The notes beneath the pieces are model-generated. The model saw only the letters and a program-made list of their open reading frames with translations, was not told the origin of the DNA and did no database searches. The position numbers and the translations under genes were made by a program. Below, one piece after another: positions 47,396-54,411 of a DNA stretch of 64,000 bases; within the stretch, counting starts at the first letter, position 1; each line of letters opens with the position of its first letter. Source of the stretch: Eledone cirrhosa (taxonomy: Eukaryota); the NCBI GenBank assembly GCA_964016885.1, contig OZ024748.1, forward strand, positions 9,982,001 to 10,046,000. The letters are read 5' to 3'.

Positions 47396-48319
47396 ACTTT
47401 CAAGCGTGAACCTAATACCGACACTGTTCATACTGAACTCCTCTTTTTTTTGTTTTTTTTTGTTCCTTGCCAATATATATATACATACACACACATACAT
47501 ATATATATCAGGATAAAGGTGATAAACACCAGGAAAGGTTTGGATTTAAGGCTTCCAATAATCCTCCAAGCTTCCCAGCTTTATTATCTTTCAAAAAGGA
47601 TGTACTTATGTAGAATATCAAACTTATTTAGAAAGGGAAGCAACTCCTTCTAACAAGGTTTGAAGAATAGATTCTAATCCGTCCATGTTCACTCCCATAA
47701 AACCGGTAACCTATACCAAGTCGTGAGAATACCTACCAGCAATTGCTACATAATACTGTGATAAAAAATTACCGGGACATTCATCAGTGTTATTAATGAC
47801 ATCAACAACGTTGCTATAAAAATCACGTGGGAACTAAATAGCCAGGACCGGACTGAACCCCTAGAATCTTTTACTCCTCATTTTACTCTGAACGATCATA
47901 AACCAAATTTCATTTTTACTTTTTGCTTTTATTTTGTTGCGAAGAATTTTCAGCCGAACATTCGGTTTGAGAAATACATTAAAGTTACACGTGTCTGTAG
48001 AATACTCAACCACTTACACATTAATTCACGAAACAGAAGTTTTGTTGATAGAACAAGTAAATGATTATCGTCGTAACTGACGGAGAAGACACCGTTTTTA
48101 CAGTAAAAACATTTGACACTCTTAAACAAACACCAATTTTACAGTAAAATTATCTCCAGATAGCTTATAACTATGAATTGAAATTGGGTCTTGTGATTAA
48201 AACAAATGAATTCAGGATTGATTGAAAATGTCTTGAATATTCTTAAACAAACGAGTTCATCATTTCTTTAATTGAAATCTGTCTCCTTTTCAGGTTTCAA
48301 GCAATATTGACCAAGCAAA

Positions 48320-49225
48320 ATGGAAGTCGATGAACTACCTTACGACTATGTCTACAATTACACAGATATCCCACCACTATCAACATTGCATTGGGCAAAT
48401 ATTTTTGCTCCTGTTTTGGCAGTCGTAATTTTCCTGTTCAACGTAATCTTAATGGTCGCCATTTTCCTAGATCGTAGAGCCTATGAGAAAACACGACTTT
48501 TCTTACTATTGAACTATTGGTTTAATTACCCAATGTTTGCCATCTACTTTTATTTCCACAACGTACATCTTTATTTATTCCAAGATTTCCCTCAATCTAG
48601 CTGCGTATTTATTATTACCTCGTATTCTGTCTTTGACGATGGTACTTCATATTTCATACTGCCGTTGTGCCTGGATTTTGTTGTGAAATACTTTAAACCG
48701 AACAAATATGAAAGCCAAAGATTTCTGCACATCCAGTACATACTAACATTTGTTTTGTGGGCCTTTATTTGGATCAAAAACTTAATAATCTTTCTAGCTC
48801 TCTCAAGCTTTGGCACCAATGGCTGCTATTTTTACATGTATACAAATTCATTCTGGATTCATTATATAGCAACAATTCTGTTAGTTATAGCAATGGTAGT
48901 GTTCTTAGGCTTGTTGATTTATATTGCAGTGAAGGGTAAAGAGCGTGGCTTGACGAAATCACCATTGATAACTTTGATCGTTATTGTCACTGTCACCATC
49001 CTCTCATCCGTACCAAAAAACATTATTTGGGCTGCAATGAATACAGGAATGGACTCTATTTCATATATTGCATATTCTTCATTAAATATGATAAGATTTC
49101 TGGTGGTGCCGTTTTTGTTCCTTCCTGATGCCACTATAAGACAAAGTCTTCGGAAGTTATGTTTATGCAAATATAAAAGGCCAAGAGAGCCTCCATCTCA
49201 TGAGTTGTCAACTGAAGTAAATTAA
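48320..49225 (+). CDS. Divergent 7TM receptor, array member A, 301 aa
   Basis: Intact ORF, seven TM segments, QSSC/GCY cysteine pair, PLCLDFVVKYFKPN, PFLFLPDATIRQS, CLC tail; acceptor ends 48293. Confidence 0.9.
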   Translation: MEVDELPYDYVYNYTDIPPLSTLHWANIFAPVLAVVIFLFNVILMVAIFLDRRAYEKTRLFLLLNYWFNYPMFAIYFYFHNVHLYLFQDFPQSSCVFIITSYSVFDDGTSYFILPLCLDFVVKYFKPNKYESQRFLHIQYILTFVLWAFIWIKNLIIFLALSSFGTNGCYFYMYTNSFWIHYIATILLVIAMVVFLGLLIYIAVKGKERGLTKSPLITLIVIVTVTILSSVPKNIIWAAMNTGMDSISYIAYSSLNMIRFLVVPFLFLPDATIRQSLRKLCLCKYKRPREPPSHELSTEVN

Positions 49226-49921
49226 TATTTATATGGTGCAATAGAAAATATATAAACACCAACAATTATATCAGCTTATGTAATACTATAAATTGGTCTA
49301 TAGGGAAGATTGTGCTGTAATACATCACTACATAACCATCATGTAACCTTTTGTCATATATATATATATATCTTTTATATACATATATATGTAATGAATA
49401 AAGAATGAATAAATACATAACCAAGGTTTAATATATTATTTACATAATTTACACATGTTTCATTCAAATACCGAAGGAGGTAGCATCCTATTCCCCTGTA
49501 TGGAATTCATCAGAATCTTTAGACAATATAATACTGTAAAACCTGTTGTCCGCCGCTCTCCCGATACTACCAAACCACCGCCCTAACAACTAGTCACTCA
49601 TTCGGATTGAGAATACATTAAAGTTATACGCGTCTATGGAATACTCAACCACTTACACATTAATTCACGAAATAGAGGTTTTGTTGATAGAACAAGTAAA
49701 TGATCATCGTCGTAAGCGACGGAGAAGACAAACACCATTTTTACAGTAAAATTATCTCCAGATAGCTTATAACTATGAATTGAAATTGGGTCTTGTGATT
49801 AAAACAAATGGATTCAGGATTGATTGAAACTGTCTTGAATATTCTTAAACAAACGAGTTCATCATTTCTTTAATTGAAATCTGTCTCCTTTTCAGGTTTC
49901 AAGCAATATTGACCAAGCAAA

Positions 49922-50827
49922 ATGGAAGTCGATGAACTACCTTACGACTATGTCTACAATTACACAGATATCCCACCACTATCAACATTGCATTGGACAA
50001 ATATTTTTGCTCTTGTTTCGGCCATCGTAATTTTCCTGTTCAACGCAATCTTAATGGTCGCCATTTTCCTAGATCGTAGAGCCTATGAGAAAACACGACC
50101 TTTCTTACTATTGAACTATTTGTTTAACTACACAATGTTTGCCATCTTCTTTTATTTCCACAACGTACATCTTTATTTATTCCACGATTTGCCTCAATCT
50201 AGCTGCTTATTTATTATTATTATGACTTGCGTTACCAATGAAGGTTCTCTATATTTCATATTTCCTATTTGCCTGGATTTTGTTGTGAAATACTTTAAAC
50301 CGAACACATATGAGAGCCAAAGATTTCTGCGTACCCAATTCATACTGACGTTTGCTTTGTGGGCATTTATTTGGATCAAAGAATTGATAGTGATTCTAGC
50401 TCTATCAAACAACGGCACTTTGGAATGTTATATTCACTTTTATTTTGTTACCTTGTATATCGTTTTAGCTCTTACAATTCTGTTAGTTATAGTAATGATA
50501 GTGTTCTTAGGCTTGTTGATTTATATTGCAGTGAAGGGTAAAGAGCGTGGCTTGACGAAATCACCATTGATAACTTTGATCGTTATTGTCACTGTCACCA
50601 TCGTCTTATACCTACCAGAAAACATAATTTGGGTTGGATTGCATTGGCAACTAATTAGTATTATGTTTTACCACCATTTTTTATTTCATATGATAAGATT
50701 TCTGGTGGTGCCTTTTTTGTTCCTTCCTGACGCCACTATAAGGCAAAGTCTTCGGAAGTTATGTTTATGCAAATGTAAAAGGCCAAGAGAGCCTCCATCT
50801 CATGAGTTGTCAACTGAAGTAAATTAA
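49922..50827 (+). CDS. Divergent 7TM receptor, array member B, 301 aa (recent duplicate of A)
   Basis: Colinear with A; duplicated unit about 47959-49370 vs 49599-50970; acceptor ends 49895. Confidence 0.9.
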   Translation: MEVDELPYDYVYNYTDIPPLSTLHWTNIFALVSAIVIFLFNAILMVAIFLDRRAYEKTRPFLLLNYLFNYTMFAIFFYFHNVHLYLFHDLPQSSCLFIIIMTCVTNEGSLYFIFPICLDFVVKYFKPNTYESQRFLRTQFILTFALWAFIWIKELIVILALSNNGTLECYIHFYFVTLYIVLALTILLVIVMIVFLGLLIYIAVKGKERGLTKSPLITLIVIVTVTIVLYLPENIIWVGLHWQLISIMFYHHFLFHMIRFLVVPFLFLPDATIRQSLRKLCLCKCKRPREPPSHELSTEVN

Positions 50828-53119: not shown

Positions 53120-53137
53120 AGAACCGACAGATCCTCT
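52907..53137 (+). repeat. 54-bp in-frame tandem repeat x4 plus a partial copy
   Basis: Units at 52907, 52961, 53015, 53069 encoding (E/K)EP(T/I)DP(P/L)S(R/H)EL.TELNCS. Confidence 0.95.
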
Positions 53138-53484
53138 AGTATACACCAGTAAATTACTGGTATCCATATTATCGCCATTCTTATACACCCTTAAAATATG
53201 TGTCTTTTGTGTTTATGTTATTATTCTTCTTTTAGTAGTAGTTGTTGTTGCTGTTGTTGTTGTTGTTGTTATTGTTGTTGTTGTTGTTGGACCTCCGAGT
53301 AAACTGGAGCCACGTAAAATAAAGTGTCTTGCTCAAGGAAGGACTCAGCGTACCACTTGGAACCGAACTGTTTTTCTAACTATGAACCAATCATATGAAC
53401 CAATCAAATGTCAGTAAAGTTAATAAATTTCTTACATCAAAATCTGTCTCCATTTCAGATTGTCTGCCATTGTGACCGAGTAAA

Positions 53485-54411
53485 ATGGAAGACGAACAAG
53501 CGCCTGTTGACAGTTATTACGACTATGAATCAGTTAGCCCGTGGCACGAACACCGTATATTTCAGTGCGCCTCCGTCGTTGTCGTCTTCTTCGTCAGCGC
53601 ATTTCTAACATCCGCCATTTACAGGGATCGGAAATCCTATCAGAAAACGCGACTGATATCATTGACCAACTATATGCTTAGTTATACAATCTTTTCAATG
53701 TTGTATTACTTCTATAATATACATATTAACATCTTTCTAAACGGTGAACTCTCTAAATGTTTTCTTGTTATAATAATATACAGAATATTTGGCGAATGTA
53801 CGAAATATTTAATTCTGCCTATTTGCTGTGATTCTATTGTGAAATATTTCTGGCCGAACAAATACAAAAAGAGAAGTTTTCAATATTTCCAGTTCATATT
53901 TATAGCTGTTTTGTGGGTGTTTATCTGCATAAAAGAACTTACCATACTATTAGCGTTCTCGGTGTATGAAGTTGATTCCTGTTATTTTTATTCGGTTCCC
54001 AGTGTACGCTCTGCTCAAATAGGGTTTATATCTCTATACTTATGTATATTATTTTTATGTCTATTTCTATTAGTCTACATTGCGGTGAAGTACGAAACCC
54101 GTGATAACAAATCGTCTATAATAGCATTGGTTAGTATCGTCACAATTCGGATTGTTTTTGACTTATTTTATGCAGTCATTTGGAATCAAAATGGTCAAAT
54201 ATTACACGTTTCTTTTCTGGCTCTCTATGGGCTATTTATAGCAACGGTGGTGCCTTTTACTCTCATACCATTTGCCTGGTTTGTAGATGCCACTATAAGA
54301 CAAAGTGTTCCGAAGGCATGTCCAGGGAGATGTAAAAATGTAACAGACCCGCTGGCAAATGAGTTACCTATGGAACAGAAGTGTTCCGAAGGCATGTCCA
54401 GGGAGATGTAA
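53485..54411 (+). CDS. Divergent 7TM receptor, array member D, 308 aa
   Basis: AIYRDRKSYQKTR..LTNY, PICCDSIVKYFWPNKY, PFAWFVDATIRQS; acceptor ends 53458. Confidence 0.9.
   Translation: MEDEQAPVDSYYDYESVSPWHEHRIFQCASVVVVFFVSAFLTSAIYRDRKSYQKTRLISLTNYMLSYTIFSMLYYFYNIHINIFLNGELSKCFLVIIIYRIFGECTKYLILPICCDSIVKYFWPNKYKKRSFQYFQFIFIAVLWVFICIKELTILLAFSVYEVDSCYFYSVPSVRSAQIGFISLYLCILFLCLFLLVYIAVKYETRDNKSSIIALVSIVTIRIVFDLFYAVIWNQNGQILHVSFLALYGLFIATVVPFTLIPFAWFVDATIRQSVPKACPGRCKNVTDPLANELPMEQKCSEGMSREM

Follow-up and report, generated by a model that had tools for sequence, protein, structure and literature searches.

Several single-exon receptor ORFs of Eledone cirrhosa lie in tandem in the window analysed here (the whole stretch of 64,000 nucleotides), and the question they raise is whether each is transcribed from a promoter of its own or whether they are chosen by splicing from shared upstream sequence, a matter that bears on how cephalopods control tandem receptor genes. 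We favour, with a probability of roughly 60%, the reading that several coding exons of this GPCR-like array serve as alternative last exons for a non-coding leader that they share, the array probably having more than one such leader.

The array and its predicted receptors

Seven same-strand paralogs make up the array (E, A, B, C, D, G and H), each with a single coding exon; E lies upstream of A, whereas G and H are located outside the window. The sequence-only reading of this DNA had described the four tandem 7TM ORFs A-D, which stand as reported, but it undercounted the members, having missed E within the window as well as G and H. Within A-D the stops are separated from the next acceptors by 339-1,186 bp of AT-rich spacer (Table 1). 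Elsewhere in the window a CD225-like exon was noticed at 5597; a CD225 search returned no match to it.

The AlphaFold model of A (pLDDT 78.7) predicts seven transmembrane helices and a helix 8 in a rhodopsin-like fold; the structures that Foldseek lists as matches to this model belong to class A GPCRs, with TMq up to 0.72 and a best E of 6.7e-6, and the top Atlas matches, at 0.96, are GPCR family 1 clusters. Two cysteines, C95 and C169, are invariant in 17/17 sequences and placed as for the TM3-ECL2 bridge, the bond itself being putative. Together with tandem lineage-specific expansion, these predicted features resemble those of class A GPCRs and of the cephalopod GPCR expansions described in PMC6408891 and PMC11886862, in whose main texts the string 'splic' is absent. 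Unlike class A GPCRs, A-E have no Pfam family (7tm_1 was above cut-off in 0/6 proteins, F reaching only E=0.054), the nearly invariant D119 is followed by F, C, S, V or Y but never by the arginine of D/E-R-Y, a DR pair being retained only in the distant F, and P264 is kept without the N or Y of NPxxY. The array proteins are GPCR-like, with a predicted class A fold and the DRY arginine missing.

Table 1. Coordinates of array features within the window
Feature	Position	Strand	Remarks
Candidate shared leader exon end	36675..36939	+	single-copy stretch ending GAG/GTAGGT at 36934
E, candidate acceptor	40231..40276	+	TTTCAG ends 40250; picked by eye
ORF E	40711..41667	+	318 aa; first ORF in the array
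A, pyrimidine tract, TTTCAG acceptor and 26-nt leader	48274..48319	+	acceptor ends 48293
ORF A	48320..49225	+	301 aa; 7TM receptor-like, single exon
First AATAAA after A	49397..49402	+	
Duplicated unit carrying B	49597..50983	+	~320 bp upstream, ORF, ~155 bp downstream
B, acceptor and 26-nt leader	49876..49921	+	acceptor ends 49895
ORF B	49922..50827	+	301 aa; recent duplicate of A
First AATAAA after B	51063..51068	+	
Candidate second leader for C (and D)	51306..51649	+	mostly single-copy; ends AAT/GTATGT at 51644 (5.9 bits)
C, acceptor and 26-nt leader	51994..52039	+	acceptor ends 52013
ORF C	52040..53119	+	359 aa; C-terminal tail a four-fold repeat
First AATAAA after C	53318..53323	+	inside SINE piece; 135 nt before D's acceptor
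D, acceptor and 26-nt leader	53439..53484	+	acceptor ends 53458
ORF D	53485..54411	+	308 aa; tail inside 76-bp tandem repeat
First AATAAA after D	54827..54832	+	

Acceptors, duplication and donor-poor spacers

In A-D the AG of a TTTCAG acceptor ends exactly 26 nt before the ATG, is preceded by 8-10 pyrimidines within 14 nt and is followed by the leader TGAC.(A/G)AG.AA.ATG in 4/4 ORFs; the spacing, the hexamer and the leader are as the sequence-only reading had claimed. TTTCAG at -26 is likewise conserved in G, and candidate acceptors picked by eye lie at -38 in H and at -460 in E; the latter is followed after 20 nt by a weak GTAAGC donor at 40271 (4.7 bits) and is separated from the ATG by a microsatellite block, the last 90 bp of the acceptor-region query being single-copy. 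The recurrence of the hexamer at this position exceeds chance: over 184 kb, 65 copies were counted in 137,572 + strand bases outside tandem repeats, about one per 2.1 kb. A and B are recent duplicates (76% protein identity, patchily distributed; dS 0.20; dN/dS 0.77), so that A-D count as three independent cases. Among A, C and D, TTTCAG is identical at 6/6 positions in 3/3 pairs with pairwise dS of 1.12-1.78 (near saturation), whereas positions -60 to -41 retain only 3-6 matches out of 20. The survival of the motif despite near-saturated silent sites indicates that the acceptor is likely under selection, conserved beyond neutral expectation. That the acceptors are unused relics, with unspliced transcription starting just upstream of each ATG, is thus hardly probable, TTTCAG being intact across lineages with dS >1 in which the flanking intron sequence has decayed.

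The duplication that gave rise to B carried little upstream DNA, in agreement with the earlier reading: homology between the copies begins at 47959/49599, some 320-360 bp before the ATG and within a repeat remnant. The unit matches A at 47959-49383 and also G, and the DNA upstream of the duplicated ~320 bp at A and B is a genome-wide repeat. A search for a duplicated promoter far upstream of A, C, G, H and E found LINE-like pieces only and no low-copy colinear homology. A shared leader would explain how B and G were duplicated with only ~320 bp of upstream DNA and yet are intact, as well as how D can start 339 bp past the stop of C. Within the duplicated DNA, 191/194 upstream bases are identical between A and B, the 190 bp before the ATG are 95-98% identical among A, B and G, and the weak donor CAA/GTAAAT (4.8 bits) is kept in all three; this donor and the similarity of the 190 bp leave room for a small local exon.

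Between the ORFs we counted a single sense donor motif of at least 5 bits against 9.1 expected (1,951 spacer bases; P=0.001, in a post hoc test with a donor scoring matrix), while the antisense control had 8; raising the threshold to 7 or 8 bits removes the significance (P=0.05 and 0.20), the antisense strand then having 0 motifs as well. No good donor motif is present in the A-B, B-C and C-D spacers. The C-D gap measures 339 bp from stop to acceptor and has no GTRAG inside, as had been claimed; its donor poverty is weak evidence alone, 28% of 2,022 random 296-bp windows being equally poor, and it is not mostly (GTT)n and SINE as previously described, since BLAST assigns only ~130 bp to both. 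The best + strand donor score between F and E is found at 36934 (10.4 bits). A CCAAT-pair stretch at 22480-22860 was considered as a bidirectional F/E promoter and rejected, because it belongs to a young repeat found throughout the genome, with 941 candidate copies and 92-96% identity in the 39 others that were scored.

Tight spacing, AT-rich donor-free spacers and TTTCAG sites could also be read as signs of a polycistronic or spliced-leader trans-spliced array, in which a long RNA is cut at the acceptors into single-ORF mRNAs. We regard this option, also raised by the sequence-only reading, as very improbable, because at motif level an AATAAA of its own follows within 900 nt in 6/7 ORFs (E has none) and because a common cis-spliced exon explains the grouping of Octopus paralogs set out below more simply; a trans-spliced leader would not map beside the locus and would therefore not account for that grouping. 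In addition, distances of 15-17 kb separate G and H from the neighbouring members, and among the literature matches listed no title deals with octopus trans-splicing.

Isoform grouping of Octopus paralogs

NCBI assigns gene models to a single gene if they have a splice site or coding sequence in common. In RefSeq, different full-length paralogs of this family are presented as isoforms of one gene in both O. bimaculoides (LOC106869328, isoforms X1-X4; LOC128246974, X1/X2) and O. sinensis (LOC115220942, X1/X2; LOC115220941, X1/X2), so that 10 of the 16 named Octopus proteins, the grouping being read from protein names, fall under multi-paralog gene ids with up to four members each. Members of a gene id are 33-69% identical, and those of LOC106869328 and LOC115220942 have a common prefix of just 2-3 residues; therefore, they have no coding exon in common, and it is most likely non-coding exons that the grouped paralogs share. 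Grouping of the X3/X4 pair in O. bimaculoides is matched by grouping of its orthologs in O. sinensis, and P0028, which under its older name is LOC106869328 isoform X2, links both O. bimaculoides groups. With respect to the array, ORF E is the ortholog of LOC106869328 isoform X1 (61% identical), ORF C clusters with LOC106869328 X2, LOC128246974 X1/X2 and LOC115220941 X1/X2, and the sole grouping partner of ORF D is the Logan protein P0001. One-to-one RefSeq orthologs are lacking for A, B, D and G, so that for these four the grouping evidence is transferred from relatives. Literature searches by LOC and XP ids and by chemoreceptor and terminal-exon terms found no paper, and among the matches listed no title concerned this locus or the NCBI grouping rule; the family accessions are absent from one supplement file of PMC11886862, and a metagenome scan gave 187 pattern matches with 0 confirmed.

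The same records could be reconciled with ordinary tandem GPCR genes, each with its own promoter and a short non-coding first exon ending in a weak donor, the acceptor being that of an inherited 5' UTR intron and the grouping a product of minor read-through splicing or of mis-mapped reads, and we consider this possible although rather unlikely. Vertebrate olfactory receptors are usually built in this way, with an intact single-exon ORF preceded by an intron in the 5' UTR, and spliced reads mis-mapped between paralogs are a known cause of falsely joined models (both in PMC7055050). Furthermore, the opposite-strand relative F also has an acceptor directly before its ATG; candidate local donors precede C (51644) and A and B (48057/49696), and two CCAAT words precede D (53385 and 53398). 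Six of the 16 named Octopus members have their own gene id, among them both H orthologs, and this is so for 5/9 in O. sinensis, including the ortholog of E as well as two proteins whose O. bimaculoides orthologs are grouped. On the other hand, the grouping is repeated in four gene ids, in both species and in both sets of names for O. bimaculoides, one grouped pair is only 33% identical and hardly confusable by coding reads, and the donor depletion is confined to the sense strand. For D, moreover, promoter, exon and intron would have to fit into the ~135 nt past the first AATAAA of C or to overlap the 3' UTR of C.

Alternative last exons behind shared non-coding leaders thus remain our preferred reading. 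The proposal of a shared non-coding exon with alternative terminal exons gains indirect support from the RefSeq grouping and the sense-donor depletion; a single master leader for the whole array does not, because the homologs split into four groups and six singles and there is a local donor candidate for C. A promoter upstream of E would start transcripts using the candidate donor at 36934, and a second promoter may lie before C with the candidate donor at 51644; the 5' exon would then be joined to one acceptor among the array ORFs, and cleavage at the poly(A) site of the chosen ORF would yield an mRNA for one receptor. It is doubtful that one promoter and one non-coding exon serve the entire array, with regulated choice of 3' splice site and poly(A) site picking the receptor of each cell. 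Equally doubtful is the corollary of a protocadherin-like diversity locus of reversed polarity, in which new receptors would arise from a duplicated 1.4-kb promoterless cassette.

Comparison with known loci and implications

In Drosophila mod(mdg4) and lola, common coding 5' exons are combined with a single last exon out of many arranged in tandem to produce transcription factors. The proposed array would share with them the common 5' part and the alternative tandem last exons, but its common part would carry no coding sequence, and a complete receptor is encoded by every last exon. In clustered protocadherins, UGT1A and Drosophila Gr28b and Gr39a it is the first exons that alternate, each having its own promoter and being spliced to 3' exons common to all; these loci resemble the array in obtaining many receptor or enzyme variants per locus from tandem cassettes, although its polarity would be opposite. 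Some mammalian olfactory receptor loci, such as OR51E2/OR51C1P, share 5' UTR exons and have a comparable plan, with a single-exon 7TM ORF, a 5' UTR intron and splicing from the first exon of an upstream neighbour, but such sharing is rare in PMC7055050 (7/874 human and 7/1,483 mouse loci), in contrast to the extent of grouping in Octopus. Read-through transcription across receptor arrays would be a further likeness to ants and mosquitoes: mosquito receptors are described as polycistronic (PMC13575207), and in ant OR arrays the chosen receptor has its own promoter and the downstream read-through RNA is untranslated (PMC12393541), whereas in the octopus array splicing would give productive access to the downstream ORFs.

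If leaders are indeed shared, receptor selection would take place at the level of splicing and polyadenylation instead of separate promoters, and a promoterless duplicate would be expressible at once. Gene counts that take one isoform per gene would then underestimate octopus GPCRs, as seven O. bimaculoides family proteins are filed under three gene ids.

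Conserved acceptors upstream of the receptor ORFs

The positions of the four tandem 7TM receptor-like ORFs A-D were reproduced, and the claim of the sequence-only reading that each is preceded by a TTTCAG acceptor ending 26 nt before the ATG and followed by a common leader motif held for all four. Judged from their 76% amino acid identity and 191/194 identical proximal upstream bases, A and B are recent duplicates, and the independent cases are therefore A/B, C and D. Among A, C and D the hexamer is identical (6/6) in 3/3 pairs despite silent sites near saturation (dS 1.12 for A-C, 1.54 for A-D and 1.78 for C-D) and the decay of positions -60 to -41 (3-6/20 matches), from which we infer a selected 3' splice site; in the background, TTTCAG occurs 65 times in 137,572 non-tandem bases. 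The acceptor feature is real and conserved, and that these acceptors go unused is the least probable of the readings weighed here.

Our search of the Eledone genome returned seven matches, all on one contig and one strand: A-D, the upstream paralog E, and G and H beyond the window, where 184 kb of flanking sequence confirmed both. G carries the -26 acceptor and the 320-bp upstream block of A and B, the block having exactly three matches in the genome. TTTCAG also lies 38 nt 5' of the ATG in H and 460 nt upstream in E, there with a microsatellite in between, both sites being picked by eye and not independent tests. The candidate acceptor of E is followed by 20 nt, a GTAAGC donor and the microsatellite (40251-40276), possibly a micro-exon removing the repeat from the E 5' UTR; this GTAAGC is also a possible donor for the downstream ORFs.

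Features of the array and its surroundings (G000:C8 is the contig carrying the array; L008 and L010 are locus handles)
Feature	Position	Strand	Description
E	40711-41667	plus	upstream paralog
A	48320-49225	plus	receptor-like ORF
B	49922-50827	plus	receptor-like ORF
C	52040-53119	plus	receptor-like ORF
D	53485-54411	plus	receptor-like ORF
G	G000:C8:10053053-10053943 (L008)		third copy of the A/B unit
H	G000:C8:10069059-10070006 (L010)		paralog; with E, oldest-looking member
F	18522-17584	minus	distant GPCR-like paralog; acceptor directly before ATG; head-to-head with array
Candidate leader 1	ends at 36934		single-copy stretch ending GAG/GTAGGT
Candidate leader 2	ends at 51644		mostly single-copy stretch ending AAT/GTATGT

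Spacers, donors and candidate leaders

The C-D gap had been described as short, lacking a consensus donor and mostly repeat; the first two points stand (339 bp, no GTRAG), and the third was too strong, BLAST assigning about 40% to simple repeat and SINE. Alone, this gap is unremarkable for donors, 28% of random windows being equally poor. Across the A-B, B-C and C-D spacers (1,951 non-tandem bases), scored with a generic donor matrix, sense donor sites of at least 5 bits numbered 1 against 9.1 expected (P=0.001; 8 antisense) and those of at least 6 bits 0 against 5.6 (P=0.004; 6 antisense), the depletion in these spacers being not significant at 7 and 8 bits. Past the duplicated block, the upstream sequence of A and B is a genome-wide repeat.

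The reading we favour, with a probability of roughly 0.6, is that one or a few upstream promoters would drive non-coding first exons whose donor would be joined to one among the array acceptors, the RNA then being cleaved at the poly(A) site of the chosen ORF to give a monocistronic mRNA. The motifs with their conservation, the spacer content and the RefSeq names are observations, whereas the place of the leader, the splice junctions and any regulation are predictions of this scheme. A stricter version, in which a single leader serves receptor choice, is rather doubtful. Private promoters with weak donors for each ORF are a possible but clearly less probable explanation, kept alive by weak local donors of 4.8 bits at 48057, 49696 and the equivalent site of G. 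AATAAA is present within 900 nt after six of the seven ORFs, E having none in that interval, and a polycistron or trans-splicing, also raised initially, appears very unlikely.

A promoter-like stretch at 22.5 kb (22480-22860) was rejected as a young interspersed repeat (941 candidates, copies 92-96% identical). Within it are a GTAAGT donor on the minus strand and two TTAGCCAATAAGA boxes, and such a repeat could be a source of promoters genome-wide.

Comparison systems for the array include mod(mdg4), lola, the protocadherins and Gr28b. Olfactory receptor loci with shared 5' UTR exons are reported in human and mouse (seven each; PMC7055050), untranslated read-through in ant arrays (PMC12393541) and polycistronic receptor transcripts in Anopheles (PMC13575207). 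Tandem GPCR clusters are reported in two cephalopod or lophotrochozoan surveys, the main text of both being free of the string 'splic' (PMC6408891, PMC11886862). In this array the shared-leader, alternative-last-exon plan likely takes a new form, with a whole receptor in each last exon.

Gene identifiers of the Octopus homologs

In RefSeq protein names recovered by profile searches, different paralogs are isoforms X1-X4 of LOC106869328 and X1/X2 of LOC128246974 in O. bimaculoides, and X1/X2 of LOC115220942 and of LOC115220941 in O. sinensis. X1 and X2 of LOC106869328 share 33% identity and the other aligned pairs 62-69%, with a common prefix of just 2-3 residues among LOC106869328 and LOC115220942 members. 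X3 and X4 (P0003 and P0005) have an identical internal run of 76 residues, absent from the O. sinensis orthologs; since their ends differ on both sides of the run, the sequences suggest recent gene conversion rather than a shared exon. The NCBI pipeline gives models one gene id if a splice site or coding sequence is common to them, a rule for which our literature search found no paper. With no overlap in coding sequence, these protein names are most simply explained by a non-coding exon shared among the models.

P0028 bears, besides its current name, the older name LOC106869328 isoform X2, and gene ids thus connect six O. bimaculoides paralogs. The tree places E as ortholog of X1 and A/B/G as sister to a clade that includes X3/X4; C clusters with X2 together with the pairs of LOC128246974 and LOC115220941, and the sole partner of D is a Logan protein. 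Among the named Octopus members found, excluding the ortholog of F, those grouped are 6/7 in O. bimaculoides and 4/9 in O. sinensis. The six ungrouped members (LOC106877394, LOC115220990, LOC118766724, -725, -726 and -695) include orthologs of three proteins grouped in the other species, a pattern compatible with more than one leader, with incomplete 5' models or with private promoters. In O. bimaculoides and O. sinensis alike, the H ortholog stands under a separate gene id, and Argonauta has four H-like proteins. These gene ids occur in no paper of the literature searched; subscription papers and supplements may contain them.

Receptor proteins and neighbouring ORFs

None of A-E reaches the Pfam cut-off for any family. 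AlphaFold, run on a 17-sequence alignment, predicts for A (pLDDT 78.7) seven long helices plus a short eighth, a fold that aligns to class A GPCR structures with TMq up to 0.72, the Atlas result being concordant. The aligned family sequences keep C95 and C169 without exception but lack the arginine of DRY and, in NPxxY, the N and Y. A profile search of 1.84 billion representatives gave 10 matches, the named ones coming from Octopus, Argonauta and, in the case of a distant one, Sepia. Among A, B and G, dN/dS is 0.76-0.93 and identity is patchy (A/B 0.69-1.00 per 90 bp), with minima in stretches placed in TM3, ECL2-TM5 and TM6-7, from which we infer fast change at the likely ligand pocket together with gene conversion.

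F matches O. sinensis XP_029647172.1, named '5-hydroxytryptamine receptor 6-like', with the same MVITDIK start, and a distant intronless relative of F (330 aa; L021:1423 on another contig, G000:C23) is by eye like the Sepia protein P0017. An exon-like ORF at 5597-5864 (plus strand), where a Pfam CD225 genome search gave no match, looks by eye like part of a CD225/PRRT-type protein. The C-terminal tail lies in tandem repeats in both C (52880-53119) and D (54303-54608), the repeat of about 57 bp being in frame in C and that of 76 bp shifting the frame in D, which leads to an early stop.
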